Position numbers and translations under genes: made by a program
In this document: positions 7,317 through 53,556 of the stretch, one piece after another
Position numbering within the stretch: position 1 is the first letter of the stretch
Layout: the number at the start of each line of letters is the position of its first letter
Notes under the pieces: model-generated
Told to the model about the DNA's origin: nothing
Databases searched by the model: none
The model's input: the letters and a program-made list of their open reading frames with translations, nothing else
From: Muribaculaceae bacterium
GTDB taxonomy: Bacteria > Bacteroidota > Bacteroidia > Bacteroidales > G3-4614
Assembly (NCBI GenBank): GCA_017546805.1
Contig: JAFYRT010000075.1
Span: 20,104-84,103, forward strand
Length of the DNA stretch: 64,000 bases
Reading direction: 5' to 3'

Positions 7317-8474
7317 TTATAAATTTTTGATTAATTCTTTAGTATATATACGAGTAACTTTATCTGTTTCAACGTAGTCCTCGTATATTGGGTTTTTAAT
7401 AAAATTTCCTGCACTCATTGCCGAATAAGCAAGGTTTGGAATATCTGTAAATTTAATTCTCTCCTCTAAGAATGCCGCAACTGCAATTTCATTTGCTGCA
7501 TTCAATATACATGGCATATTTCCGCCTTTCTCTATTGCGTCATAAGCAAACTTAAGCATAGGAAAACGTTCGGTATCAGGAGTCTCAAAAGTCATGGTAG
7601 AGTAGTCTGCAAGGGTTAATCTCTTACCTCCAAAATCAACTCGCTTAGGATATGTAAATGCATAAGCAATAGGTAATTTCATATCAGGAACACCCAACTG
7701 AGCTTTAACTCCGCCATCTTCAAACTGTACCATTGAGTGTATGATTGATTGAGGATGTACTGCAACTTCAACCTGTTGAGGGGTTACACCAAACAACCAT
7801 TTTGCTTCGATCATTTCAAATCCTTTATTCATTAATGATGCAGAATCAATTGTTATTTTTGCCCCCATAACCCAATTTGGATGTTTGAGTGCATCAGCTT
7901 TGGTTACATGAGCCAATTGGTCTGCTGTATATCTTAGAAATGGACCTCCAGATGCAGTCAATATGATTTTTTCAATATTATTGAACTCTTCACCTGTTAA
8001 ACATTGAAATATTGCAGAGTGTTCTGAATCAACAGGAATTATCTCTGTTCTGTATTCAAGAGCAAGTTTTGTGATTAGCTCTCCTGCAACAACAAGAGTC
8101 TCTTTGTTTGCAAGAGCTATTTTTTTGCCTGCTTTAATGGCTTTGATTGTGGGAAGTAATCCTGAATACCCCATCATCGCTGTTAATACAATGTCAATAG
8201 GTGTTGCCTCTACAGCTTCGGCAATTGCATTGCTTCCTGCGTAAACTTTAATTGGCAAATCACTTAAAGCGTTGCTAACGGTTTCATATAAATCTTCATT
8301 TGCAATAACAACAGTATCCGGCAAAAACTTTCGAGCCTGTTCAATCAATAACTCAGCACTATTATTTGCAGTTAAAGTATGAACCTCAAACATTTCAGGA
8401 AATGTATCAATTACTTCGAGAGCCTGACGTCCTATAGAACCTGTTGAGCCTAATATTGCTATTTGTTTCTTCAT
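7317..8474 (-). CDS. dxr: 1-deoxy-D-xylulose-5-phosphate reductoisomerase
   Basis: 385-aa ORF with the N-terminal ILGSTGSIG NADPH motif and the typical ANKE, DSEHSA and HPNW motifs of Dxr. Confidence 0.95.
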   Translation of the reverse strand: MKKQIAILGSTGSIGRQALEVIDTFPEMFEVHTLTANNSAELLIEQARKFLPDTVVIANEDLYETVSNALSDLPIKVYAGSNAIAEAVEATPIDIVLTAMMGYSGLLPTIKAIKAGKKIALANKETLVVAGELITKLALEYRTEIIPVDSEHSAIFQCLTGEEFNNIEKIILTASGGPFLRYTADQLAHVTKADALKHPNWVMGAKITIDSASLMNKGFEMIEAKWLFGVTPQQVEVAVHPQSIIHSMVQFEDGGVKAQLGVPDMKLPIAYAFTYPKRVDFGGKRLTLADYSTMTFETPDTERFPMLKFAYDAIEKGGNMPCILNAANEIAVAAFLEERIKFTDIPNLAYSAMSAGNFIKNPIYEDYVETDKVTRIYTKELIKNL

Positions 8475-8668
8475 CGTATAATTAATTCATTTAATCTGTT
8501 TTTGCAACAGAATACACTAATCTGCAAATTTACAAAAAAATGATGAAAATACGAAGGCGTTTCCACTCAAATAGTGTTATAATTATAATTGTTGCATAAA
8601 GAATATAAAATATTAACTATAATTATCTTCTGTAGATACAAAAGAAGATGTGGGTATGAGATAAAGAG

Positions 8669-10750
8669 CTACTCTTTTATGAGATATGTACCATGTTCTT
8701 TTATATCAAAGTATGGTATTTTTAGAGCTTTGCACTCTTTTATTATGGATTTGCGTTTAAAATAATTCAAGTTTGAAGCTATAACTATCTCTTCAAAAAT
8801 AAACATCTCTGTTAACTTTGCCACCGAACCTGAAAAACCATTGCATACTATAGCTCTATTGATAAAGAGCCTTTCTCCTGAAGCTTTCTTTTTGTTCTTA
8901 AACTCAGAAGAGTTTAAAATTAGATATTTCTCTCCTTTGTATGCAATATATGGTAACTTAACGAAAAGATTATTATCTACAACTGAATCTGTTATAAATA
9001 TGGCATTTGGAAGCGCTTCTTTTATCCAAAACTTTTTGCCCATATATTCAATTTTTTCTTCAACACCAACTGTGTCAATAGTTAAAACATAGTTATAATT
9101 TTTATCAACAAAGTTCAGTGCGGTTATTCTGTTATCATCATATATAACAGCTTTGCATTGTTCTCTATTTTTATTGACAACGGTCTCAGTAATTATAAAT
9201 GCTGCTATGAGAATCAGTAGTATTATAAGCAACTCACTTCGCTTACTTTTCAATATCCATATTCCTCCAAATATTACAATGTATAGAAAGAGAATATAGT
9301 AGCTTTTTATGTAAATATCGTCAATATATGAGTAGGGGATTGTGTTCGATAAATTGGCTATAAAATCAATATAAGAGAATAAGCTATCTGTAATATTAAA
9401 AAATATATCCACAGAAATAATCATTGTCAATATAGCCGAAACAATCACTATAGGAAGAATCGGAATCACCAGCAAATTGGTAAATAGACCCATTAATGGG
9501 AGTTGATTAAAATAATATACACTCAAAGGTAGTGTGCCAATTTGAGCTGCTAATGTAACCGCAATGGTTGAGGATATGTATGCCGATACTTTGTTTTTAT
9601 GAGGTAAACATGAGTATATAAACGGATATATGTAAAAGATTGAAAAGACAGCTATAAAGCTTAATTGAAAACTTACATCAGATATATAATTAGGATTATA
9701 TGCAAGTATAAATAAAGCGGCTGCAAAAAGTGAATTTACAGTAGTTCCTTTGCGATTTACAACTTCTCCAACAAGAACAAAAGTTGCCATTACGGCAGCT
9801 CTGACCGCTGACGGAGGAAATCCTATGACAAAAATATATGCCCATAAGATTAGGATTGTAATTAGCGGTCTGACAAACGAAAGTTTTATTAATTTTAAAG
9901 GGAAAAGTAATAGATACAAGGCAAAGGCAATAATACCAATATGCAAACCACTGACAGCAAGGATATGAGATAAACCCGATGTAGAATAAGCATTACGCAT
10001 ATCTTTGGATAACATGGCTTTATCACCCAAAATCATTGCACTTATTAATGCTTTTGAAGTATCATTTATCTCAAAACTTTTTATGATTTTCAGTAGTTTA
10101 TTTTTAATTTCCAACGACTTCTCTTTTATAGAATTTGGACTTATATAATCTATCTTGTTCCAACCATTGCAAGGGATATATTGCGAATAATAAAATCCTT
10201 CGCGTTCTAATTTTGAGTTGTAATTAAATGACGATAAGTTGTTCGAAAAATTTATTGGTTGTAGATTTTGCTCAAAAATAATAACATCTCCCTTTATGAG
10301 ATTTTTTGACAATGAATCGGGCTGAATATAAAGCACCACATTTAAATTGTCGTTAATATCTTCAATACCACTCAGCTTTATTATTGATGCTTTACTCTCA
10401 ACCGAATGTTCTTTTACATTAACATCTTCATTGATAATAGCTATGGCATAATCTTTAATTTTCGGTATTGAGATATCTGGTTTTGAGACGATTTGAGCAT
10501 CAATTGCACCTAATGCAATAAAAAGAGAAAATATAGCATAACCAAAATAATTTCTCTTTGCAAATTTCGTCTTTGGAAGGTGTGCTTTGTAAAAACCGTA
10601 AAAGAAAAAAAATGATAATATAACGAATGACAGAGCAATATAATATCCTCCGTTAAAAACCATTTGTAATAAAATTCCTATTACAAAAGATAAAAGATAT
10701 TTAAGAAAAGGGGCTTCAGATAATTTCAGAAACCCCTCTTTATTTGCCAT
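8669..10750 (-). CDS. comEC: ComEC/Rec2-family membrane protein
   Basis: 693-aa polytopic membrane ORF. The central competence-domain-like segment (SGLSHILAVSGLHIGI) is typical of ComEC/Rec2. Confidence 0.75.
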   Translation of the reverse strand: MANKEGFLKLSEAPFLKYLLSFVIGILLQMVFNGGYYIALSFVILSFFFFYGFYKAHLPKTKFAKRNYFGYAIFSLFIALGAIDAQIVSKPDISIPKIKDYAIAIINEDVNVKEHSVESKASIIKLSGIEDINDNLNVVLYIQPDSLSKNLIKGDVIIFEQNLQPINFSNNLSSFNYNSKLEREGFYYSQYIPCNGWNKIDYISPNSIKEKSLEIKNKLLKIIKSFEINDTSKALISAMILGDKAMLSKDMRNAYSTSGLSHILAVSGLHIGIIAFALYLLLFPLKLIKLSFVRPLITILILWAYIFVIGFPPSAVRAAVMATFVLVGEVVNRKGTTVNSLFAAALFILAYNPNYISDVSFQLSFIAVFSIFYIYPFIYSCLPHKNKVSAYISSTIAVTLAAQIGTLPLSVYYFNQLPLMGLFTNLLVIPILPIVIVSAILTMIISVDIFFNITDSLFSYIDFIANLSNTIPYSYIDDIYIKSYYILFLYIVIFGGIWILKSKRSELLIILLILIAAFIITETVVNKNREQCKAVIYDDNRITALNFVDKNYNYVLTIDTVGVEEKIEYMGKKFWIKEALPNAIFITDSVVDNNLFVKLPYIAYKGEKYLILNSSEFKNKKKASGERLFINRAIVCNGFSGSVAKLTEMFIFEEIVIASNLNYFKRKSIIKECKALKIPYFDIKEHGTYLIKE

Positions 10751-10771
10751 ATTATATTAATGTTTATTTTA

Positions 10772-11419
10772 TTACAATGCTTTCAAGGCCGCTATTGTCT
10801 CAATTGGATTTTCTGATTTAAATACAAAATTTCCGGCAACAAGAGCATCTGCGCCTGCATCCACAACTAATTTGCCTGTTTCAAGGTTAATACCTCCGTC
10901 GACCTCAATTATTGCAGAAGAACCCTTTTTTAATATCATCTCTTTTAGTTCTGCAACTTTGTTGACTGTGTTCGGAATAAATTTTTGTCCTCCGAATCCA
11001 GGATTTACCGACATCAATAAAACCATATCCAAATCTGTTATAACATCTTGTAACAGAGAAACAGGAGTATGAGGATTAAGGGTAACAGCAGCCTTCATAC
11101 CAGCCTCTTTTATTTGTTGAATAGAGCGGTGTAGGTGTGCAGAAACCTCATAGTGAATATTCATCAAATAAGCATTACTATCTTTAACCTCTTTGACAAA
11201 TTTCATGGGGTCAACAATCATCAAATGAACATCGAGAGGCTTTGTAGACAATTTCTTAACATAATCCAATACAGGAAAACCAAAAGATATATTTGGAACA
11301 AACACTCCATCCATAACGTCAATATGTAACCAATCAGCTTCGCTGTTATTTACCATATTTATTGATGAGGCTAAGTTCCCAAAATCAGCCGATAATAATG
11401 AAGGTGCAATTATTGCCAT
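10772..11419 (-). CDS. rpe: ribulose-phosphate 3-epimerase
   Basis: 215-aa ORF with IAPSLLSADF, HIDVMDG, MSVNPGFGGQ and VDGG motifs. Confidence 0.95.
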   Translation of the reverse strand: MAIIAPSLLSADFGNLASSINMVNNSEADWLHIDVMDGVFVPNISFGFPVLDYVKKLSTKPLDVHLMIVDPMKFVKEVKDSNAYLMNIHYEVSAHLHRSIQQIKEAGMKAAVTLNPHTPVSLLQDVITDLDMVLLMSVNPGFGGQKFIPNTVNKVAELKEMILKKGSSAIIEVDGGINLETGKLVVDAGADALVAGNFVFKSENPIETIAALKAL

Positions 11420-11839: not shown

Positions 11840-12430
11840 TTAGAAGAATAGTTCCACTTTATTTTCTTCTGCCATTCTGCGCATATTCATTATTGCATAT
11901 CTCATACGGCCAAGAGCGGTATTTATGCTTACATTTGTAGCATCAGCAATCTCTTTAAAGCTCATGTTTTGATAATATCTCATTACCAATACCTCTTTTT
12001 GGTTGTCGGGTAGGGCGTTCACAAGCTTACGTATATCGATTCTAACTTGAGCCGAAATCATAGAATCCTCAACGGTTCCTTCGCTTAACTCTTTTCTATT
12101 GAAAACATCAGGATTCATATCTGAATTAGGAATATGATTCTCCGATTTCTCTTGACGATAGTGGTCAATTATTAAGTTGTGAGCTATACGAGTAATCCAT
12201 GATGAGAATTTGCCCGATTCAACATATCTTCCTTGTTTAATTGTGGTAATAACTTTCACAAAAGTCTCTTGGAATATGTCTTCAGCCAAATCCCTATCTT
12301 TTACAATATAGAAAACGTATGAGTAAATGCGATTTTTGTGTCTGAGAAGTAGAACATCAAAAGCACCATTATCTCCTTCTGAATATAATGCCACCAACTC
12401 CTCGTCGGTAAGCAAATTATAATTTTTCAT
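11840..12430 (-). CDS. ECF-type RNA polymerase sigma-70 family factor
   Basis: 196-aa ORF with region 2 (AEDIFQETFVK...WITRIAHN) and a region 4 helix-turn-helix (MSFKEIADATNVSINTALGRMRYA). Confidence 0.85.
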   Translation of the reverse strand: MKNYNLLTDEELVALYSEGDNGAFDVLLLRHKNRIYSYVFYIVKDRDLAEDIFQETFVKVITTIKQGRYVESGKFSSWITRIAHNLIIDHYRQEKSENHIPNSDMNPDVFNRKELSEGTVEDSMISAQVRIDIRKLVNALPDNQKEVLVMRYYQNMSFKEIADATNVSINTALGRMRYAIMNMRRMAEENKVELFF

Positions 12431-12659
12431 TAATAATCCTCTTTATAGTTTAAGAGTAGAAGTCTATTCGATAGGCGTGCATTTTTATGTTTAACTCTGC
12501 AAAGAAAAGGCATTTATATGATATTTACAAATATTCTGTCGAAAAAAAGCTCGTATTAAAACATTTTTTAACATTTAAAATACAATAAATATTCTTTTCA
12601 TAAATTACAATATTGAGCAAGATAATAATTTTAAATATTGGTTATTTTAATAAAATTTG

Positions 12660-12667
12660 TAAATTTG
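12660..12667 (+). promoter_or_regulatory. Bacteroidota -7 promoter box (TAAATTTG)
   Basis: Exact TAnnTTTG match followed by CA, 60 nt upstream of the 12727 start. Confidence 0.45.
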
Positions 12668-12726
12668 CATTTGATTTGTTTTTAAACAATTGAATAATTT
12701 TAATAACGATTAAATAAAATCTAATT

Positions 12727-13626
12727 ATGAAACCAACATTATTTGTATTGGCTGCAGGAATGGGAAGCCGCTACGGTTCACTTAAACAATTAGATGGTTT
12801 AGGACCAAACGGAGAAACAATTATGGACTATTCTATTTTCGATGCAATTCGCGGAGGATTTGGAAAAGTTGTATTCGTAATTCGTCATTCATTTGCAGAA
12901 GAGTTTATTGAAAAAGTAGTAAATAAATATGCTCAAGTAATACCAACTGAGGTTGTATATCAAGAGTTGAATTATCTACCTGAAGGATTCTCAGTTCCTG
13001 AAGGTCGTGAAAAACCATGGGGTACTAACCACGCAGTTATGATGGGTAAAGAGGTTATTAAAGAGCCTTTTGCAGTAATTAATGCTGATGATTTCTATGG
13101 CCGCGAAAGCTTTGCAATTATTGCAGATTGGTTGTCAAAACAAGAGGGAGAAAACAAATACTGTATGGTTGGATACCGTGTAGGTAACACTATGAGCGAG
13201 AGCGGAACTGTTTCTCGTGGTATTTGTGAGACAAACGAGGCTTCGGAGTTGACTTCTGTTGTAGAGAGAACAAAAATTGGATACTATAACGATGGTATAG
13301 CATTTAACGAAGGAGAAGAGTGGACAATGCTTGATCCTAACGTTCCTGTATCAATGAACATGTGGGGATTCACTCCTGACTACTTCAAATATTCAGATGA
13401 GATATTTGTAGAATTCTTGAAAGAGAATATGTCAAATCTAAAATCAGAGTTCTTCATTCCTCTTATTGTAAACGATCTTATCCAAACTAAACGTGCAACA
13501 GTTACAGTTCTTGACACTCCTTCAAAATGGTTCGGAGTAACTTATGCTCAAGACCGTCCTGATGTAGTTGCTAAAATTCAATCATTGGTTGATGCAGGAG
13601 AATATCCTTCACCATTATTTAAATAA
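12727..13626 (+). CDS. sugar-phosphate nucleotidyltransferase family protein
   Basis: 299-aa ORF with the N-terminal LAAGMGSRYG (GxGxR NTP-transferase signature) and an INADDFYG motif. Confidence 0.65.
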   Translation: MKPTLFVLAAGMGSRYGSLKQLDGLGPNGETIMDYSIFDAIRGGFGKVVFVIRHSFAEEFIEKVVNKYAQVIPTEVVYQELNYLPEGFSVPEGREKPWGTNHAVMMGKEVIKEPFAVINADDFYGRESFAIIADWLSKQEGENKYCMVGYRVGNTMSESGTVSRGICETNEASELTSVVERTKIGYYNDGIAFNEGEEWTMLDPNVPVSMNMWGFTPDYFKYSDEIFVEFLKENMSNLKSEFFIPLIVNDLIQTKRATVTVLDTPSKWFGVTYAQDRPDVVAKIQSLVDAGEYPSPLFK

Positions 13627-13650
13627 GAATTTAGTAAATAATTAAAATAG

Positions 13651-13680
13651 GAAAGGGGAGTCCGATTGAATTCCCCTTTC
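13651..13680. terminator. bidirectional hairpin terminator between convergent genes
   Basis: Perfect 9-bp stem gaaagggga (13651-13659) / tcccctttc (13672-13680), between the stop at 13626 (+) and the leuB stop at 13704 (-). Confidence 0.6.
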
Positions 13681-13703
13681 TTCGTGATAATATTAAAATT
13701 AGA

Positions 13704-14774
13704 TTATTTATTTTTGATATAATCAACAATCCATTTGCCAACCTCAGACGTTTTGTAAGATTTCTCTCCTTGTGCAATATCCACAGTAACAACTCCTGCA
13801 TCAATTGAAGCAGATACAGCTTCACGAATTAATTTACCCTCTTCCATTAAACCAAAAGCATATTCAAACATCAATGCTGCTGAAAGAATTGTAGCTAATG
13901 GATTAGCAATATCTTTTCCTGCTGCTTGAGGATATGAACCGTGAATTGGCTCAAATACTGATGTATGTAAACCAACAGAAGCTGAAGGCAACATTCCAAG
14001 AGAACCTGTTATAACTGACGCCTCATCTGTTAAAATATCGCCAAACATATTCTCTGTAACCATAACGTCAAAGCGTGAAGGCCATTGAACAAGTTGCATT
14101 GCTGCATTGTCAACAAACATGTATTCAGTTTCAACCTCTGGGTACTCTTTTGAAATTTCTTGAGCAACCTCTCTCCACATACGTGAAGTACATAGAACAT
14201 TAGCTTTATCAACAACAGTTACTTTTTTTCTGCGTTGCATTGCGTATGTATATGCAAGACGAACAATTCTGTCAATCTCTTCACGAGAATATACACAAGT
14301 ATCGTATGCTACATTTCCATCTTCACTTCTTCCTTGAGGACGTCCAAAATATATACCTCCTGTCAACTCCCTGATACACATCAAATCAGTTCCTGCAACA
14401 ACGTCTTGACGAAGTGGAGATTTATGTATAAGTTGAGGCATTGTTGATACAGGACGAATGTTTGCATACAATCCTAATTGTTTACGCATTCCCAACAATC
14501 CTTGCTCTGGGCGTACTTTAGCTGATGGATTGTTGTCATATTTTGGATCTCCAATAGCTCCAAACAAAACAGCATCCGACTCCATACATATTTTGTGAGT
14601 CTCTTCGGGGTATGGGTTACCTGTTGCATCGATTGCACAAGCACCTACAAGAGCATGTTTATATGACAATTCGTGTCCGAATTTCTCGCATACAGCAATT
14701 GTTGCATCCAATGCGGTTGCCACAATTTCAGGACCAATTCCATCGCCTGGCAACACGGCTATATTCATTTTCAT
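13704..14774 (-). CDS. leuB: 3-isopropylmalate dehydrogenase
   Basis: 356-aa ORF with N-terminal [12 protein letters not shown] and the isocitrate/IPM dehydrogenase signature ([25 protein letters not shown]). Confidence 0.95.
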
Positions 14775-14814
14775 ATCTTATTAAAATTAAAAAGTTTTAC
14801 AATTAATATCTCAA

Positions 14815-16338
14815 TTAAAGTTCTTCTATATGGTTCAACATCTTTATGGTAGCTTGAATTGCGGCTGCCATCTGGTCGAGATCCAATCCGTAAGTTTTAA
14901 AAGTCTTTCCTTTATATTCCCATGTGATAGATGTTTGTACCAAAGCATCTGTTCTACCTCCGGGTGGAATATTTACCGCATAATCCAATAGTTGTGGGAA
15001 TGGTCTATGCAGTTTTGTTTTATATATCCATTGGATACCCTTTACAAAAGCATCATATTGTCCGTCTCCTGTTGCACCTGCCTCATACACCTCTCCATTA
15101 ATCTCCAACTTAAGCACAGCTCCCGGACGTAATCCGTTTGCCACAGCAAGAGTATAATTTAAAAGAGTAATTCTCTGCTTTTGGGTATTTCGATTAAGAG
15201 TATCAGAAATAATATAAGGTAAATCTTCTTGTGATATAATCTCTTTTTTGTCACCTAACTCAATGATTCGCTCAGTAACTTTACGCATTGATTCTTCATC
15301 AAGTTCAATACCCATAGCTTCAAGATTTTTACGGATATTTGCTTTCCCTGAAGTTTTACCAAGGGCATATTCTCTCATGCGGCCGAAACGTTCAGGAAGA
15401 AGATCATTATAATAGAGATTATTCTTGCTATCACCATCGGCATGTACTCCTGCACATTGTGTGAATACATTATCTCCAATAACAGGTTTATTAGCTGGTA
15501 TTCTTATTCCTGAATAAGATTCCACTACGCGACTTACATGGTTTATTTTTGCTTCGTTGATAGAGGTCTTCATTCCCAATTGATCATGCACGACAGCCAA
15601 AATACTTGATAAAGCAGCATTTCCAGCTCTTTCGCCTAATCCATTAATTGTACAATGCACACCTTTAACACCTGCTTTAACAGCTGCGTAGCAGTTTGCT
15701 ACAGCCAAATCGTAATCGTTATGGGCATGAAAATCGAAGTGCAGGGTAGGGTATCTCTCTATTATCTCTTTGCAATACCTATATGTTGTATCAGGATTTA
15801 GAACTCCTAATGTATCGGGTAACATGAATCTTTTTATATTGCATGAGCTTAATGAATCTATTAGATTATACACATATTCGGGGGAATCTTTCATTCCGTT
15901 AGACCAATCCTCTAAATATAGATTAACTTCTATTCCCTCTTTAGTCGCAATATCTATTTCATGTTTAATATCGCATATATGCTCCTCAGGGCTCTTTTTT
16001 AATTGATATTGACAATGTCTTAAAGAACCTTTACTCAACATGTTAACAATTTTACCACCGGCATTCTTTATCCAATTTATTGATACACCTTTATCAATAA
16101 AACCTAAAACCTCAATAGCTTTAAGTTTTTTATGCTTTGAAGCCCAATCGCAAACCCGTTTAACAGCTTCCATCTCTCCTGCAGATACTCTTGCAGAGGC
16201 GATTTCAATTCTGTTTACCTTAATTTCGTTTAAAAGAAGACGTGCAATACTTAATTTTTCGAATGCGCCAAACGATACGCCGGAGGTTTGCTCTCCGTCG
16301 CGTAGTGTGGTATCCATTATTTCAAGTTTGCATTTCAT
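14815..16338 (-). CDS. 2-isopropylmalate synthase / citramalate synthase family paralog
   Basis: 507-aa ORF with the HMGL-like motifs TTLRDGEQ and HAHNDYDLAVAN. It is a second family member inside the leu operon. Confidence 0.75.
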   Translation of the reverse strand: MKCKLEIMDTTLRDGEQTSGVSFGAFEKLSIARLLLNEIKVNRIEIASARVSAGEMEAVKRVCDWASKHKKLKAIEVLGFIDKGVSINWIKNAGGKIVNMLSKGSLRHCQYQLKKSPEEHICDIKHEIDIATKEGIEVNLYLEDWSNGMKDSPEYVYNLIDSLSSCNIKRFMLPDTLGVLNPDTTYRYCKEIIERYPTLHFDFHAHNDYDLAVANCYAAVKAGVKGVHCTINGLGERAGNAALSSILAVVHDQLGMKTSINEAKINHVSRVVESYSGIRIPANKPVIGDNVFTQCAGVHADGDSKNNLYYNDLLPERFGRMREYALGKTSGKANIRKNLEAMGIELDEESMRKVTERIIELGDKKEIISQEDLPYIISDTLNRNTQKQRITLLNYTLAVANGLRPGAVLKLEINGEVYEAGATGDGQYDAFVKGIQWIYKTKLHRPFPQLLDYAVNIPPGGRTDALVQTSITWEYKGKTFKTYGLDLDQMAAAIQATIKMLNHIEEL

Positions 16339-45462: not shown

Positions 45463-45678
45463 ATGTCAGAAAAAGAGATGAATTCATACCGATTTGGCAC
45501 AGGACAAGAACCAACAGACGAAATGTTAAGCCAAATAATGAAAGAAGTTGCTCAAGAAGCTGTAGAAAGCAGAAAAGAAGTTGAAGCATTTCTTTTAAAA
45601 CAAATGTGTTTGAATATTGTCAAAAAACAAGAACAATGGGCTGACCGCATAAATAGCATTATCAATGAAAGAAACTAA
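45463..45678 (+). CDS. small acidic protein, putative antitoxin partner of the zeta-like ATPase
   Basis: 71-aa ORF that overlaps the downstream ATPase gene by 14 nt (45665-45678). No family recognised. Confidence 0.5.
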   Translation: MSEKEMNSYRFGTGQEPTDEMLSQIMKEVAQEAVESRKEVEAFLLKQMCLNIVKKQEQWADRINSIINERN

Positions 45679-46273
45679 TATTAAACCTGAGTTGATAATT
45701 ATTGCCGGGCCTAATGGATCAGGCAAGACATCAGTAACAAAGAAATTCTTACATCACGAATGGGCAGAAGGAACCACATATATAAATCCTGACGAGGTTG
45801 CTAATGATATATTCGGCGATTGGAACTCTAAAGAAGCTGTATTAAAAGCAGCTGATTATTGTGCCAAGTTAAGAGAAGATTGCTTGAAAAACAAACAAAG
45901 TTTTGTATTTGAAACAGTAATGTCTGCAGATGATAAAGTAGATTTTATATTAAGAGCAAAGGAAAATGGCTTTTTTATTCGCCTATTCTTTATATCTACA
46001 GATACTCCTATTATAAACGCATCAAGAATAGCAAATCGAGTAATGAAAGGAGGGCATGACGTGCCTATTTCCAAAGTAATTTCAAGATATTATAAATCAA
46101 TAGAAAATTGCAAGACAATATCATCTGTTGTTGATAGACTATATATATACGACAACTCTATAGACGGAGAAGAAGCAAAACTACTGTTTCGCTTAACAAA
46201 CGGAACTCTTGCAAAAAAATATGTAGCAGATATTCCCGAATGGGCAAAGCCAATACTCCCCGATAAAAATTAA
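45665..46273 (+). CDS. zeta-toxin-like / COG4185-type P-loop kinase
   Basis: 202-aa ORF with Walker A IIAGPNGSGKTS near the N-terminus. Size and layout match the zeta_toxin/AAA_33-like kinase family. Confidence 0.65.
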   Translation: MKETNIKPELIIIAGPNGSGKTSVTKKFLHHEWAEGTTYINPDEVANDIFGDWNSKEAVLKAADYCAKLREDCLKNKQSFVFETVMSADDKVDFILRAKENGFFIRLFFISTDTPIINASRIANRVMKGGHDVPISKVISRYYKSIENCKTISSVVDRLYIYDNSIDGEEAKLLFRLTNGTLAKKYVADIPEWAKPILPDKN

Positions 46274-46296
46274 TAACATAATTAAATATTACAAAA

Positions 46297-46327
46297 CCGT
46301 TCTATCTTAAAGGTAGAGCGGTTTTTT
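46297..46327 (+). terminator. intrinsic terminator after the zeta-like gene
   Basis: 10-bp stem ccgttctatc (46297-46306) / ggtagagcgg (46312-46321) with two G-U pairs, followed by TTTTTT (46322-46327). Confidence 0.7.
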
Positions 46328-49800: not shown

Positions 49801-50058
49801 GACAGACTCCGTTACCTATGCAAAGGAAAGTCAAGCCCGAATAAGGAACTATGCAAGGAGTTCAACCGCATTACCCGAGACGGAAAGAACATGCAACACT
49901 ATTCCGAGCTGTTGGGTGATGCAATTGCGTCTATCATCGACGTAAAAGAGGAAAGCGACATTGATTCTTTCCTCGGCGGTGCCACTGGCTCACTCTTTAC
50001 AGAAGAGATTAAGGGACTTGACGATTTTGAATTGATATGTTTTTTGGTAATCAAGTAA
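46819..50058 (+). CDS. SNF2-family helicase/translocase with ~230-aa uncharacterised N-terminal domain
   Basis: 1079-aa ORF with motif I LADSVGLGKTF, motif II VVIDESHNFRN, motif III LMLSATPVNN, motif V/VI region TDCISEGQNLQ and RIIQRFGRIDRIGS. Confidence 0.85.
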   Translation: MELIDNVNKTLKEDLIAEIKSGSKISIAASCFSIFAFQELKEQLKDIEELRFIFTSPTFVAEKASKQKREFYIPRLNRERNLYGSEFEVKLRNELSQRAIAKECAEWIKEKVCFKSNRTNENMMGFINVDNTNYMPINGFTTVDIGCERGNNAYSFVQKTEAPLSKHFLDLFEQLWNDSSRMQVVTEEILDNITNAYKENAPDFLYFITLYNIFNEFLEDISEDVLPNEATGFKNSIIWSKLYNFQKDACLAIINKLEKYNGCILADSVGLGKTFTALSVIKYYENRNKTVLVLCPKKLNDNWITYNNNYINNPIVGDRLRYDVFFHTDLSRSAGYSNGRDLSHINWSNYDLVVIDESHNFRNGGKVTTDENDENPRENRYLQLMNKIIRKGVKTKVLMLSATPVNNRFNDLKNQIALAYEGESDKIDKLLNTKSSIDDIFRQAQREYNIWSKLPSEERTTKRLLERLSFDFFEVLDSVTIARSRKHIEQYYDTTDIGKFPTRLSPISRRPHLTDLDSAINYNDIYLLLEGLNLAIYTPSDFILPSRLDKYMNITSEEDYSNLTMKGRERGIRKLMSINLLKRLESSVNSFRLSLNRILGFISSTVAKIDTISHGGGSVYVDEHDFEGLDLEEQEDIFIGGKKSKIALEDMDYVAWKQYLDKDIETLNLLLLMLADITPEHDSKLQQLIDDLKYKFANPINENNKKVIIFTAFSDTAEYLYENLADSIKERCNLNTAIVTGSSDAKSTIRLRNRQKLDFNTLLTLFSPISKEKAALLPDISEEIDVLIATDCISEGQNLQDCDFLINYDIHWNPVRIIQRFGRIDRIGSRNEVIQLVNYWPDMDLDEYIDLKGRVEARMKVSVMTSTGDDNPISPEEKGDLEYRREQLKRLQSEVVDIEEMNTGISIMDLGLNEFRLDLLAYMQDNPNIEYTPFGLHAVVPATEGCPPGVVYVLKNRNNNVNIDRKNRLHPFYLVYISDDSEVVVNHLSPKELLDRLRYLCKGKSSPNKELCKEFNRITRDGKNMQHYSELLGDAIASIIDVKEESDIDSFLGGATGSLFTEEIKGLDDFELICFLVIK

Positions 50059-50060
50059 CT

Positions 50061-50660
50061 ATGTACGGCTTACCACAGACAACAGAAGTTCGAAAGCAGT
50101 TGCCCAAGAAAGCAATTTATGCAAAGTTTGAGTTGAAGTCCTCGCAACGTGAGAGTTTCGATGCAGACATTGCACGCATAGACATTGTGGCGGTTGTTTC
50201 AACCTCTACTGTACCAGCACTGAATGTCGGAACTGAGGTAAAGGAATTTTATCTGCTTGCCGTACAGCTGAAACGCAAGGGGTACGACAGTAAGAATATC
50301 GCACTGCTAACCAAACTTATTCCGCAACGGATGGTGTTTGCCCTTCAATTTGAGGAGCAGATACAGTTTGCCATCTATCACACAAAACTTATTTCATCGG
50401 CTTGGCAAACTACAGAAGAGGCCACGCTTCCATTGTCAGGATTAAACCTCGATGTTGTGTGGGAGAATATAATCGCCACGATTGGTAATATCACCATTGT
50501 TGGTGGTAATAACATTGTTGAGCAGATTGCAGAGGATGATACACACGCCAAACTGATGAAGCAGATAGAACAGTTGGAGAAGAAGGTTCGTGCCGAGAAG
50601 CAACCTCGCAAGAAGTTGGAACTATTTGAGAAATTGAAGGGGTTGAAGAAAAATTTGTAA
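50061..50660 (+). CDS. DUF4391-like protein
   Basis: The ORF track gives 50037..50660. I prefer the ATG at 50061 (MYGLPQTTEVRKQLPKKAIYAKF...), 2 nt after the SNF2 stop. The N-terminal pattern matches my memory of DUF4391, which typically follows SNF2 helicase genes. Confidence 0.6.
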   Translation: MYGLPQTTEVRKQLPKKAIYAKFELKSSQRESFDADIARIDIVAVVSTSTVPALNVGTEVKEFYLLAVQLKRKGYDSKNIALLTKLIPQRMVFALQFEEQIQFAIYHTKLISSAWQTTEEATLPLSGLNLDVVWENIIATIGNITIVGGNNIVEQIAEDDTHAKLMKQIEQLEKKVRAEKQPRKKLELFEKLKGLKKNL

Positions 50661-50664
50661 TAAT

Positions 50665-51624
50665 ATGTCCAACATAAGCAATACTTTAATTGAAAGAGAA
50701 GGTGTAGCGGCTGTTCAACAGTGTTTAACACGAATGGGGTGGATTTTTAGAGAGAATTCTCACACTGATTATGGAATAGACGGAGATGTAGAGCAAGTAA
50801 TGGATGATAAACCCACCAATTTACATATTGCTCTTCAAATAAAATCAGGACCTTCATACTTAAAAGAAAATAAGGATGGGAATATTACATTTTATATTGA
50901 TGAGTGGCATTACAAATATTGGTTGCAATCAGACAGACCTGTTCTTATTTTATTTTATGACAATGTAAATGATAGGGTTATTTGGGAACAAGTCAAACTC
51001 CGTAATATACAAACTACCAACTCACAATATAAGATTGTAATAAATCCTACAAAGATTTTGAATAAAGATTGTTTGCTAGAACTTAATGACATTATAGCGA
51101 CACACCAACCTCAGCACTTTTACGAATTGACAGACGAGTATAACGATTTCGAGTTTTCTCATTATTGTTACCAAGAACTAAATAGGTCTATTGGTGAATC
51201 GTGTAATGATGTGCTACACTTTAGGGAGGGCATTAAACACCAAGGCGTATCTCTCAATTCGGCTATTATAAAATCGCTAATAAATGATTTAGCAGACAGG
51301 ACACAAAGTCGCACGACAAGGGAATATGAATGGCTACACAAAGGATGTTGGTATTTGCAAACAATGGCGCAGCACATTGACCCATTTTTATTTACGATGC
51401 TGGTAGAGTGCGTTGATGAATATATCACTATAATCGACTACAATACTACCATTTGGCAAGGAATAGTTAATGATATATCAAAACTGTTCCACCCAAACGT
51501 TCCTAATGACATCCAACAATGTGCAGGAAGATGTATCACAATTATAGAAGATAGATTTGCCACATACGAATTAGTCAAAGGAGAGTATCAAAAGTGTATT
51601 AGAATAACAAAGGAACGAAAATAA
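50665..51624 (+). CDS. DUF4365 (PD-(D/E)xK nuclease-like) domain protein with unknown C-terminal domain
   Basis: 319-aa ORF. The N-terminal ~110 aa, EREGVAAVQQCL...TDYGIDGDVEQV...ALQIKSG, fits a D..(D/E)xK restriction-endonuclease-like core. The C-terminal ~200 aa carry no recognisable motif. Confidence 0.6.
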   Translation: MSNISNTLIEREGVAAVQQCLTRMGWIFRENSHTDYGIDGDVEQVMDDKPTNLHIALQIKSGPSYLKENKDGNITFYIDEWHYKYWLQSDRPVLILFYDNVNDRVIWEQVKLRNIQTTNSQYKIVINPTKILNKDCLLELNDIIATHQPQHFYELTDEYNDFEFSHYCYQELNRSIGESCNDVLHFREGIKHQGVSLNSAIIKSLINDLADRTQSRTTREYEWLHKGCWYLQTMAQHIDPFLFTMLVECVDEYITIIDYNTTIWQGIVNDISKLFHPNVPNDIQQCAGRCITIIEDRFATYELVKGEYQKCIRITKERK

Positions 51625-51639
51625 AACTAACCAAATAAT

Positions 51640-53556
51640 ATGGAAAAACTAAAAATGCAGACTGCTGATATGGCAGAGCGAAATATCAAGATGTTGGGAC
51701 AGATGTTCCCGAACTGCTTGACCGAGACCATCAATGCCGACGGTAAGTTGGTGCGTGCTATCGACTTCGATAAGTTGCGTCAAGAGTTGGCGTGTGAGGT
51801 TGTCGAGGGAGCCGATGAGCGTTATCAATTCACTTGGCCAGATAAGCGTGCTGCTATCCGTTTGGCAAATGCACCTATCAACAAAACCCTTCGTCCTTGT
51901 CGTGAGGAGAGTGTTGATTTCGACAACACCGAGAACCTCTATATCGAGGGCGACAACTTGGAGGTGCTGAAGTTGCTCCGTGAGAACTACTTGGGTAAGG
52001 TGAAGATGATTTACATCGATCCTCCATACAACACTGGTAACGACTTTGTCTATAACGATGACTTCGCACAGGGTAAGGCGGAGTTTGAGGCACAGAGCGG
52101 TCTGTTTGACGAGGAGGGACGCCGTATGGCAGACCCTATGGTGCAGAATACCGAGAGCAATGGTCGTTTCCATACCGATTGGCTCAATATGATTTATCCT
52201 CGCCTAAAAGTTGCCAAAGACTTACTCACTGACGATGGCGTTATCTTTATATCAATTGATGATAATGAGGTAAGAAACCTTCGCAATGTGTGTGATGAAG
52301 TTTTTGGAGAACAAAACTTTATAGCAAATCTAATATGGCAAAAGAAGTTTTCAAGAGCAAATGATGCTAAATATTTTTCTACAATGCACGACCACATATT
52401 ATGCTATTGTAAAGTTAATATTTACACATCTGATAACGGATGGCAAATTGGACTATTGCCAAGAGGAGAAGAAATACCAAGTGGTTATGCAAATCCCGAT
52501 AATGACCCAAGAGGAGTTTGGACATCTGTTATCTTATCAGCAAAGTCGGGGTCAGAAAGTCTTGTTTATGAAATAGAAACGCCAAGCGGACGCAAAGTTC
52601 TTCCTCCAAGTGGAAGATATTGGTGCTGTAATAAAGAGACTTTTGTAAAATGGAAAAATGACGGTCGTATTTGGTTTGGAGCAGACGGAAATGGAACTCC
52701 TCGCAAGAAAACATTTTTATCAGAGGTTCAAGATGGATTAAGACCAAATACAATTATTCTTCATTCTGAAGGTGGCCATAATCAAGAAGGCAAGCAGGAA
52801 ATGAAAGCACTTTTTGATGATATAGGAGTATTTGATGGTCCGAAACCGATAAGATTACTTCGTTATTTATCAACTATCGCAAATCTGAATGAAGATTCCA
52901 TTGTATTAGATTTCTTCTCTGGCTCTGCAACAACGGCACACGCTGTAATGCAGTTAAATGCCGAAGACGGTGGTAATCGCAAGTTTATTATGGTGCAACT
53001 ACCCGAAAAGACCGATGAGAAAAGCGAGGCTTATAAGGCTGGCTACAAGAACATCTGCGAGATAGGCAAAGAGCGTATCCGTCGTGCAGGACGCAAGATT
53101 AAGGAGGAGAACGCAACGAAGGAGGGTATCGAGCGACTCGATGTGGGCTTCCGTGTATTGAAACTCGATGAGTCGAATATGGCAGATGTATATTATACCC
53201 CTGCCGAGACTCCAATACAGACCACATTGAACTTTGATGCGTTGGTGGATAATATCCGTGAGGGACGCACAGCCGAAGACCTCTTGTTCCAAGTATTGCC
53301 TGAATGCAACTTACCTCTATCGAGCAAGATAGAGATACGAGAGATACACGGCAAGAAGGTGTTTATTGTGGAGGATGGCTACTTGATGGCTTGCTTCGAC
53401 AACGACATCAACGATGCTGTAATCACCGCCATAGCGAAGGAGAAACCATACTACTTTGTGATGTGCGATCGCTCGATTGCATCCGACAGCGTCGCCGACA
53501 ACTTCGACCAAATCTTCAACGCTTACAGCAAGGATACCGTTAGGAGGATATTGTAA
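51640..53556 (+). CDS. mod: type III-like (beta-class) DNA methyltransferase, Mod subunit
   Basis: 638-aa ORF with motif IV IYIDPPYNTGNDF preceding motif I VLDFFSGSATTAHA (beta permutation). The N-terminal FTWPDKR...TLRP...NLYIEGDNLEVLKLL is typical of type III Mod proteins. Confidence 0.85.
   Translation: MEKLKMQTADMAERNIKMLGQMFPNCLTETINADGKLVRAIDFDKLRQELACEVVEGADERYQFTWPDKRAAIRLANAPINKTLRPCREESVDFDNTENLYIEGDNLEVLKLLRENYLGKVKMIYIDPPYNTGNDFVYNDDFAQGKAEFEAQSGLFDEEGRRMADPMVQNTESNGRFHTDWLNMIYPRLKVAKDLLTDDGVIFISIDDNEVRNLRNVCDEVFGEQNFIANLIWQKKFSRANDAKYFSTMHDHILCYCKVNIYTSDNGWQIGLLPRGEEIPSGYANPDNDPRGVWTSVILSAKSGSESLVYEIETPSGRKVLPPSGRYWCCNKETFVKWKNDGRIWFGADGNGTPRKKTFLSEVQDGLRPNTIILHSEGGHNQEGKQEMKALFDDIGVFDGPKPIRLLRYLSTIANLNEDSIVLDFFSGSATTAHAVMQLNAEDGGNRKFIMVQLPEKTDEKSEAYKAGYKNICEIGKERIRRAGRKIKEENATKEGIERLDVGFRVLKLDESNMADVYYTPAETPIQTTLNFDALVDNIREGRTAEDLLFQVLPECNLPLSSKIEIREIHGKKVFIVEDGYLMACFDNDINDAVITAIAKEKPYYFVMCDRSIASDSVADNFDQIFNAYSKDTVRRIL

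Follow-up and report, generated by a model that had tools for sequence, protein, structure and literature searches.

The DREN (DUF4365) domain, which has been placed in the RecB-like Mrr subfamily (bioRxiv 366930), is a Mg2+/Mn2+-dependent, sequence-nonspecific DNase. In isolation it is monomeric and inactive, and it is activated by tetramerization through α1–α1 and β1β2–β1β2 contacts that the Argonaute filament of SPARDA systems brings about (PMC12205087; bioRxiv 2025.04.08.647717). Its catalytic DxGxD...QxK motif was defined in the SPARDA papers and in PMC11297309. Activity was abolished by mutation of D41, Q60 and K62 in NbaSPARDA (PMC12205087) and of E37, D41, Q62 and K64 in XauSPARDA (bioRxiv 2025.04.08.647717), and was lost on mutation of Q62 and K64 in TmuRE (PMC10810196) and of D42, D46, Q66 and K68 in EAT16 (PMC11297309). 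EAT16 is a toxin of Photorhabdus associated with an extracellular contractile injection system (eCIS), and its motif is needed for cytotoxicity in E. coli (PMC11297309). Another DUF4365 protein, the single-gene anti-phage system Divona, combines the domain with a C-terminal domain (CTD), is carried in Vibrio integron cassettes and was shown to be protective (bioRxiv 2024.07.02.601686). To date, DREN is understood solely as the collateral nuclease that Argonaute controls in SPARDA, in which a guide-directed filament assembles the tetramer. Here we analyzed a 319-amino-acid (aa) open reading frame (ORF) located between a DUF4391 gene and the mod gene of a Type III restriction operon in a Muribaculaceae bacterium. 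The window, that is, the whole stretch of DNA analyzed, comprises 64,000 nucleotides (nt) of the contig JAFYRT010000075.1 (assembly GCA_017546805.1, positions 20,104 to 84,103), and all coordinates refer to it unless another locus is named. By comparison with the described systems, the product of the ORF is most fittingly classed as a nuclease of the DREN type with a putative new regulatory domain, carried as restriction-linked cargo. A parallel that has long been known is provided by the "restriction-linked" genes of Type I operons.

The nuclease domain and its helical partner

The initial annotation of this DNA had proposed a D-(D/E)xK nuclease core followed, from about residue 120, by a domain of about 200 aa without a recognizable motif. 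The N-terminal region matched PF14280 (DUF4365) over residues 10–142 (E-value 5.1e-30; 104.8 bits against a gathering cut-off of 24.3; profile positions 1–137 of 139) and the nuclease part of the PADLOC Aga_REase model over residues 6–153 (E-value 2.7e-24). The sole sequence matches in the PDB were DREN-APAZ proteins of SPARDA (9jsb_D, E-value 4.8e-8; also 9qbq and 9qbp). A full-length AlphaFold2 model was built from 55 homologs, with a predicted local distance difference test score (pLDDT) of 90.9 and a predicted template modeling score of 0.87. The top 15 Foldseek matches of this model were all SPARDA DREN chains (E-values 7e-9 to 1e-4; best probability 1.00), which confirmed the restriction-endonuclease-like fold, and the next matches were the small PD-(D/E)xK nucleases D212 and I-Ssp6803I. 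Residues D35, D39, E43, Q58 and K60 are invariant in the 55-sequence alignment and, in the alignment to the PDB sequence, correspond to E37, D41, E45, Q60 and K62 of NbaSPARDA. The motif reads D35-Y-G37-I-D39 ... Q58-I-K60 in this protein and is the Mrr/DREN variant, with Q in place of the D/E of (D/E)xK. The proposed core was thus essentially right as to the fold and the intactness of the motif, but the actual motif is DxGxD...QxK. The nuclease domain also runs further than had been thought, to about residue 146, leaving an uncharacterized part of about 173 aa (residues 147–319). By every computational criterion applied the domain belongs to DUF4365/DREN, and residues 1–146 are a DREN PD-(D/E)xK domain with the full predicted metal-binding/catalytic set D35/D39/Q58/K60.

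The remainder of the protein was modeled as four long antiparallel helices (residues 162–192, 199–237, 240–272 and 281–318), both in the full-length AlphaFold2 model and in an independent model of the CTD only (pLDDT 90.6). Conserved positions in this domain are S165, C168, E171, F186, Y221, K226, W229, Y230, W264, L274, P277 and P280, and residues 276–280 form a conserved H-P-N-x-P loop. The domain is acidic, with an isoelectric point of 5.4 in the window protein and a family median of 5.9, so DNA binding is unlikely. The earlier description of this region as rich in Cys, His and Trp holds for the window sequence (7 C, 8 H and 3 W) but not for the family, in which only C168 and W229/W264 of these residues are conserved. 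A Zn or other metal cluster, which the Cys and His content had brought to mind, was rejected as unlikely because C168 is the only one of the seven CTD cysteines that is conserved.

As had been noticed from the letters alone, the C-terminal part carries no recognized motif: it had no match in the Pfam, NCBIfam, PADLOC and PHROGs profile libraries, and one NCBIfam match with E-values of 0.0075–0.015, far under its cut-off, was dismissed as meaningless. The best match of the CTD profile among PDB sequences was a chemotaxis-receptor coiled coil (E-value 0.07). Foldseek searches with the CTD alone returned generic helical-bundle likeness and no relative, both in the PDB (best E-value 0.098; CorA cytoplasmic helices, cyclodeaminase, de novo bundles and PA26/PA28) and in BFVD (best E-value 0.22). 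It is a helical domain without earlier description. A profile search of 1.84 billion representative proteins found the CTD in 16 representatives. The full-length ones are proteins of 307–330 aa with DUF4365 ahead and the CTD at about residues 146–320, the remainder are fragments, and no fusion to another effector was seen. Since the CTD was found only behind DUF4365, it is taken to be a narrow, family-specific partner of the DREN nuclease. The C-terminal regions of 30 further DUF4365 proteins of comparable length formed at least seven groups, none of them related to this CTD, which gave hhalign probabilities below 2% against them. A second DUF4365 protein, of 354 aa, lies directly downstream of Res in locus L163 (14899–15963 of that locus, + strand), where a family member already occupies the position between DUF4391 and Mod. 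Its DREN domain is 36% identical up to about residue 195 and its C-terminal domain is unrelated, so this one operon encodes two DREN paralogs with differing CTDs. The general picture suggested by these sequences is that of a constant DREN effector joined to variable C-terminal sensor/regulator modules.

The family comprises 58 full-length homolog clusters sharing 35–100% identity. The ratio of nonsynonymous to synonymous substitution rates was 0.07–0.15 for the whole ORF in three independent pairs, 0.04–0.12 for the N-terminal domain and 0.09–0.20 for the CTD, and both domains are thus constrained. With these homologs and substitution patterns, the ORF is a real gene rather than a chance reading frame.

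The SPARDA DREN-APAZ proteins (PDB 9jsb, 9jsz, 9jt2, 9vx6, 9qbp, 9qbq and 9qcc) carry a homologous N-terminal DREN domain at the same position, with an identical E/D-x3-D ... Q-x-K arrangement. In contrast, the ORF product has a 157-residue bundle in the place of APAZ and has no Argonaute partner. The PADLOC Aga_REase-PNTD1-PNTD2 model was matched only at its positions 8–152 of 429, leaving the APAZ part unmatched, the alignments to PDB SPARDA sequences stop at about residue 111, and past DREN neither the sequence nor the Foldseek searches found a SPARDA match. There is no adjacent gene for a short Argonaute (MID-PIWI); the operon neighbors are SNF2, DUF4391, Mod, a SIR2-like protein and Res. 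Membership in SPARDA was rejected because both APAZ and Argonaute are missing. As the ORF has no guide RNA, the trigger and the assembly of its nuclease must differ from those of SPARDA. Divona resembles the ORF product in that one polypeptide, encoded by a mobile gene, has a DUF4365 nuclease at its N-terminus and a non-nuclease domain at its C-terminus. The two were compared by description; the Divona CTD is crr6-like (PF08847) and integron-borne, whereas the ORF lies in a Bacteroidales restriction operon. Identity with Divona was rejected because no Pfam family besides DUF4365, and hence no crr6, was matched at an E-value of 0.01 or lower. EAT16 shares the two-domain layout and the N-terminal DUF4365, but it is secreted or injected and linked to a contractile injection system, and its second domain and biological role differ. 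The D212 and I-Ssp6803I nucleases (PDB 2w8m and 2ost), the latter of which acts as a D2 tetramer, share the same minimal restriction-endonuclease-like core. Their likeness to the ORF is weak (Foldseek E-values 5e-3 to 2e-2), they have no C-terminal bundle, and the ORF has no intron, intein or viral context.

Occurrence of the gene and organization of the operon

Full-length relatives of the ORF were found in Bacteroidales metagenome-assembled genomes (MAGs) and in gut metagenomes, and 14 lineages had informative flanks. In 10 of them the family member is the gene directly upstream of a Type III mod, with gaps of −23 to +15 nt, often overlapping mod. These include operons of the form SNF2-DUF4391-...-Mod-...-Res (the window, L001, L003, L004, L006, L068, L076, L162 and L163) as well as L161, where the gene precedes Mod-Fic-Res and neither SNF2 nor DUF4391 is present. 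The upstream position in L161 (6707–8004 of that locus) is taken by two unannotated genes of 341 and 83 aa without a Pfam match. The other four lineages are outside any restriction operon. In P0008 the gene follows putAbiC on a mobilizable element with an integrase, a relaxase and a NikA-like protein, and the neighboring cargo consists of NERD, SLFN-helicase and Type I restriction-modification or AbiJ genes. L002 has the gene directly after mnmE, L007 near DUF2971/DUF3560 genes, and P0034 alone among metabolic genes. Such stand-alone occurrences are compatible with single-gene defense. No Argonaute gene was seen in the 14 contexts. The members of the P0008 clade (L072–L075; gene at 10001–10963, in L075 at 7821–8783) are 55% identical to the window protein and always lie about 25 nt after putAbiC (PF16872), on an element that includes AAA_25, is integrated beside mnmE and differs in its downstream cargo between members; putAbiC and the DREN gene of this clade may be a two-gene module.

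A neighbor-joining tree of the family showed operon and non-operon contexts interleaved. The pair formed by the window protein and L001 is sister to the non-operon pair L002/P0008, and the operon-borne P0048 is sister to the stand-alone P0034. Members outside operons keep every conserved CTD residue. Given this interleaving, the gene has repeatedly entered and left restriction operons with its conserved residues kept.

To place the ORF among related operons, the GTDB representative genomes were searched with a DUF4391 alignment, which gave 184 relatives, and the best 80 were examined (L080–L159). The order SNF2-DUF4391-Mod-Res, all on the same strand, was found in every examined locus that extended far enough, with DUF4391 always after SNF2 and often overlapping it. 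The ORF family was present in one of the 80 backbone loci, which is the contig of L001, and missing from the other 79. The gene is therefore nearly absent from related backbones, but the family as a whole is not, given its position 5′ of mod in most of the lineages described above. The distances between neighboring backbone genes have a bimodal distribution, with one class near zero and another at hundreds to thousands of bases. Counting a gap of at least 300 nt as an occupied slot, cargo was present in 25 of 77 loci between SNF2 and DUF4391, in 49 of 68 between DUF4391 and Mod, and in 41 of 60 between Mod and Res; the DUF4391|Mod slot was wholly empty in 14 of the 68. In the examined loci, 144 cargo ORFs with a length of 100 aa or more lie on the operon strand and formed 56 clusters, so that at least 56 cargo families use the three slots. 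The initial annotation had taken the ORF for a second effector or a sensor of the operon machinery; the evidence shows interchangeable cargo instead. The cargo representatives belong mostly to defense, abortive-infection or toxin-antitoxin families. Those identified were AbiGi, DUF4238, TIR, an AAA_21+RloB pair, a YhcG/DUF1016 nuclease, MNT+HepT, Fic/DOC, RhuM, SLFN/AlbA_2, pentapeptide, TPR and SIR2-like proteins. Among the recurrent cargo families without assignment, one of 590 aa fills slot 2 in 8 loci, one of 213 aa fills slot 1 in 14 loci, and one of 103 aa was present in 6 loci.

Some individual loci had additional arrangements. L136 has two tandem mod genes between DUF4391 and Res (12332–16232), and L117 (10669–14832) and L128 have the same AAA_21+RloB pair in slot 2, L117 also having a DUF4391 fragment at 12709–12879. 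Recurrent recombination in the slot appears to have left these arrangements as scars. Six backbone loci (L111, L122, L138, L146, L152 and L155) come from MAGs labeled Verrucomicrobia, Enterobacterales, Saccharibacteria or Clostridia (Pseudoflavonifractor, Acutalibacteraceae). The DUF4391 proteins of these loci share 48–61% identity with the Bacteroidales ones, which points to horizontal transfer between phyla or, alternatively, to contamination during binning. DUF4391, which is universal in the backbone, matches the phage family phrog_37194 of PHROGs over residues 9–117 (E-value 1.5e-6).

The operon in the window holds the Mod methyltransferase and Res helicase-nuclease pair by which Type III restriction-modification is recognized, although Res scored 380.9 bits against the NCBIfam Type III endonuclease model, under its 564-bit equivalog cut-off. 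The C-terminus of Res is a PD-(D/E)xK RE_endonuc domain (Pfam; residues 890–996, E-value 9.7e-30), so the locus encodes two PD-(D/E)xK nucleases, as had been predicted. DISARM was considered for the backbone. In that system DrmA (a DUF1998 helicase), DrmB and DrmC stand beside the SNF2 protein DrmD and a methylase, and the window SNF2 is DrmD-like. The assignment was rejected because this SNF2 protein reached 147 bits against the 610-bit DrmD cut-off of NCBIfam and the operon has no equivalents of DrmA, DrmB or DrmC. In the searchable literature, whose coverage is incomplete, the three-slot SNF2-DUF4391-Type III backbone was not described and DUF4391 was mentioned in just two papers, incidentally.

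The identities between related operons are mosaic. SNF2 of the window is 91% identical to that of L003 at the protein level while the ORF homolog is 39% identical; versus L001, SNF2 is 76% and the ORF 88% identical. The block of raised nucleotide identity in common with L001 (Table 1) begins 230 nt before the end of DUF4391, includes the complete ORF and stops 630 nt into mod, and its flanks are 69% (SNF2) and 77% (Res) identical by blastn. The alignment with L003 ends at about 50470, in the same breakpoint region. This pattern of identities indicates that the block is the footprint of a cassette exchange through homologous recombination in the backbone genes.

Base composition had been used earlier to propose that the ORF was acquired separately from the backbone. 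The contrast in guanine plus cytosine (GC) content was reproduced, with 0.33 for positions 50901–51000, 0.428 for DUF4391 and 0.45–0.49 for the 5′ end of mod. Separate acquisition itself gained support from the 79 backbones without the gene, the mosaic identities and the other genomic contexts. However, the GC argument points the wrong way, because the ORF is host-typical (0.347 versus a window mean of 0.366; 26th percentile of same-sized segments) and the genes that stand out by a high GC content are DUF4391, Mod (0.437) and Res (0.446). The minimum of the operon, 0.299, is in the SIR2-like cargo gene. Within mod, the central part (52270–53140) has a GC content of 0.35–0.40 compared with 0.45–0.49 at the ends of the gene. 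Its DNA-level alignment to related operons is poor or absent, whereas both ends of the gene align, a pattern consistent with target-recognition domain swapping.

Proposed role and alternative explanations

On balance, we lean toward the view that the ORF encodes a self-contained, portable defense nuclease of the abortive-infection type, whose C-terminal bundle would control oligomerization of DREN and whose gene is exchangeable operon cargo. A dedicated regulatory role of the CTD is proposed because the bundle was predicted with confidence, is under purifying selection, is fused solely to DREN and is acidic, and because other DUF4365 proteins have variable CTDs. Autonomy and portability are suggested by the 79 of 80 backbones that do without the gene, the other contexts, the interleaving on the tree and the 87%-identity block. 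A role in defense is proposed because the slot neighbors are defense genes and because Divona, with its DUF4365 and CTD, protects against phage. According to this model, the ORF would occupy one of the three insertion slots of the SNF2-DUF4391-Mod-Res operon and be co-transcribed with it, and the acidic four-helix bundle would replace Argonaute/APAZ as the device that assembles DREN. In uninfected cells the bundle would keep the DREN domains apart or occluded and the nuclease off. An infection cue, which could be a phage product or a change in the state of DNA or nucleotides, would then lead the bundle to drive or permit self-association into an active DREN oligomer. The resulting indiscriminate cutting of DNA would abort the infection and provide a second line of defense after the co-expressed Type III enzyme. 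The gene would spread through homologous recombination within the conserved flanking backbone genes.

Several points weigh against this proposal. For this family, the nuclease activity, toxicity, oligomeric state and phage defense are all properties that we infer. The CTD has no recognizable ligand- or protein-binding homolog, and the idea of regulated oligomerization rests on the analogy with SPARDA and the general behavior of helical bundles. In addition, the bias toward the site directly 5′ of mod is not needed by an autonomous nuclease and may reflect a functional link.

A portable DREN nuclease of this kind would be of interest because the family puts the same catalytic module as SPARDA together with a quite different, small and self-contained domain, its proposed controller. 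Learning how a 157-residue bundle gates DREN would show how the nuclease can be switched without Argonaute and could yield a compact triggerable nuclease. The slots collect defense genes, many of them without known function, such as the 590-aa family, and offer a discovery handle for immune genes of the gut microbiota. The three-slot operon, which is widespread in Bacteroidales, is also a test bed for synergy between a restriction enzyme and a backup effector.

The main rival, which we judge unlikely, is a guardian like PrrC: the bundle would dock on the Type III Mod/Res enzyme and hold the nuclease latent until a phage anti-restriction factor disabled that enzyme, whereupon the freed nuclease would kill the cell. 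This explanation would account for the position immediately 5′ of mod in 10 of 14 lineages, including L161 without SNF2 and DUF4391, and for the recombination block taking the 5′ end of mod along with the gene. It also has a precedent in PrrC, which is embedded in the EcoprrI operon (review PMC12707154). PrrC and the Rlo ("restriction-linked ORF") genes of Type I hsd operons are likewise effectors co-transcribed between restriction-modification genes, and the AAA_21+RloB pair found among the slot cargo of related loci is itself of the Rlo type. However, PrrC, whose gene lies in a Type Ic operon, is a tRNA anticodon nuclease regulated through an ABC-ATPase, whereas the ORF has a DNase-type fold and lies in a Type III operon with SNF2 and DUF4391; homology with PrrC was rejected because no ATPase or anticodon nuclease family was matched in Pfam, PADLOC or NCBIfam. 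The 4 of 14 lineages outside restriction operons, which interleave on the tree and keep all conserved CTD residues, count against docking, and physical coupling of the ORF product to the restriction enzyme is doubtful in view of them. A CTD-like adaptor or docking segment was sought in the other cargo of the same slots and none was found. The slot bias itself can be accounted for by recombination-mediated spread.

A more speculative and still less likely possibility is that SNF2-DUF4391-Mod-Res of gut Bacteroidales is a dedicated carrier that expresses, and possibly supervises, rotating abortive-infection effectors in its three fixed slots. The DREN-bundle protein would then be a new Argonaute-independent DREN switch. 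Its bundle would sense either how the Type III enzyme is functioning or the presence of a phage anti-restriction factor, and would assemble the active tetramer. If this were true, a DNase in a Type III operon would be following the logic of a PrrC-type guardian.

We give little credence to a stand-alone Type IV-like nuclease, that is, a constitutively competent Mrr-family enzyme that would attack modified or marked foreign DNA and complement the Type III enzyme. DUF4365 does belong to the RecB-like Mrr subfamily (bioRxiv 366930), and Type IV enzymes are common neighbors of restriction-modification systems. Nonetheless, the closest characterized relatives of the ORF are nonspecific collateral nucleases that need induced tetramerization, and its acidic helical CTD is unlike known modification readers or DNA-binding domains.

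It is very improbable that the ORF is a selfish gene resembling a homing endonuclease, which would cut empty DUF4391|mod junctions and spread through co-conversion during repair, without benefiting the host. The idea draws on the weak fold likeness to I-Ssp6803I (Foldseek E-value 0.02), a tetrameric PD-(D/E)xK homing endonuclease whose likeness to DREN was also remarked by the SPARDA authors (PMC12205087). The location between conserved genes and the raised-identity block reaching into both flanks would resemble a co-conversion tract. However, the same slot also holds dozens of unrelated cargo genes that do not encode nucleases (TIR, AbiGi, DUF4238, RloB and others), so its turnover needs no homing. 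One occupied backbone in 80 is a poor record for a homing element, the family occurs in at least three unrelated genomic contexts, and the acidic CTD offers no DNA-recognition module. Finally, the integral second cleavage subunit or sensor of the SNF2-DUF4391-Mod-Res machine that the initial annotation proposed is barely credible: the tight same-strand packing with gaps of 4 and 15 nt, and the fact that the locus would otherwise rely on the Res nuclease alone, speak for it, but 79 of 80 related backbones have no such gene, 14 of 68 have an empty slot, the gene is exchanged independently of the backbone and the family exists without the backbone.

Features of the locus and its surroundings

The features of the ORF and of the operon are listed in Table 1. 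The junctions agreed with those described initially. The TAA stop codon of DUF4391 (50658–50660) is followed by the four nucleotides TAAT and the ATG of the ORF at 50665, and the stop codon of the ORF (51622–51624) precedes the ATG of mod at 51640 by 15 nt.

Table 1. Positions in the window of the domains of the ORF product and of the genes of the operon (AF2, AlphaFold2)
Feature	Position	Strand	Evidence
ORF of 319 aa with ATG start: DREN (DUF4365) nuclease domain, linker and four-helix-bundle C-terminal domain	50665..51624	+	Complete ORF; AF2 model
N-terminal DUF4365/DREN nuclease domain (residues 1–146)	50665..51102	+	Pfam PF14280; PADLOC; PDB sequence match; Foldseek
Catalytic motif DxGxD...QxK	50767..50844	+	Conservation in 55 homologs; alignment to NbaSPARDA
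Catalytic codons D35; D39; E43; Q58; K60	50767–69; 50779–81; 50791–93; 50836–38; 50842–44	+	
Linker (residues 147–161)	51103..51147	+	AF2 pLDDT dip to about 84
C-terminal four-helix bundle (residues 162–318)	51148..51618	+	Two AF2 models; conservation
Mosaic recombination block common to window and L001	50428..52270	+	blastn, 86.8% identity
Backbone gene 1: SNF2-family helicase, 1079 aa	46819..50058	+	SNF2-rel_dom, Helicase_C; PADLOC C3a139, E-value 3e-115
Backbone gene 2: DUF4391 protein, 207 aa; 22 nt overlap with SNF2	50037..50660	+	PF14335, E-value 5.5e-30
Backbone gene 3: Type III Mod methyltransferase, 638 aa	51640..53556	+	N6_N4_Mtase; PADLOC MTase_III, E-value 5e-235
Slot-3 cargo: SIR2-like protein, 397 aa	53556..54749	+	SIR2_2, E-value 2.7e-5, just over cut-off, residues 210–287
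Backbone gene 4: Type III Res, 1009 aa	54746..57775	+	ResIII; PADLOC REase_III, E-value 4e-296

The SIR2-like ORF between Mod and Res, which the initial annotation did not mention, overlaps both of its neighbors by 1–4 nt. L004 (53% identity) and L134 have homologs of it in this slot, and no relative was found among PDB sequences. It is probably a second cargo effector of the operon, perhaps an NADase-type enzyme. The operon has a chromosomal setting among housekeeping genes, with ligA, dapA and a GH2 gene upstream and purU, hisH/A/F and an aspartokinase gene downstream, and neither an integrase nor a tRNA gene lies near it. A scan for promoters and terminators gave 44 promoter-like sites against 42.9 expected, using the sigma-70 consensus, which is unsuited to Bacteroidota. 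A look for RNA runs that could show expression returned none, and no name for the ORF product was found in the sources consulted. Just upstream of the operon is a gene for a Zeta-toxin/AAA_33-like P-loop kinase of 202 aa (45665–46273, + strand). It is followed by a hairpin with a 15-bp stem and a T-run (46293–46325), the sole strong terminator-like hairpin in the region.

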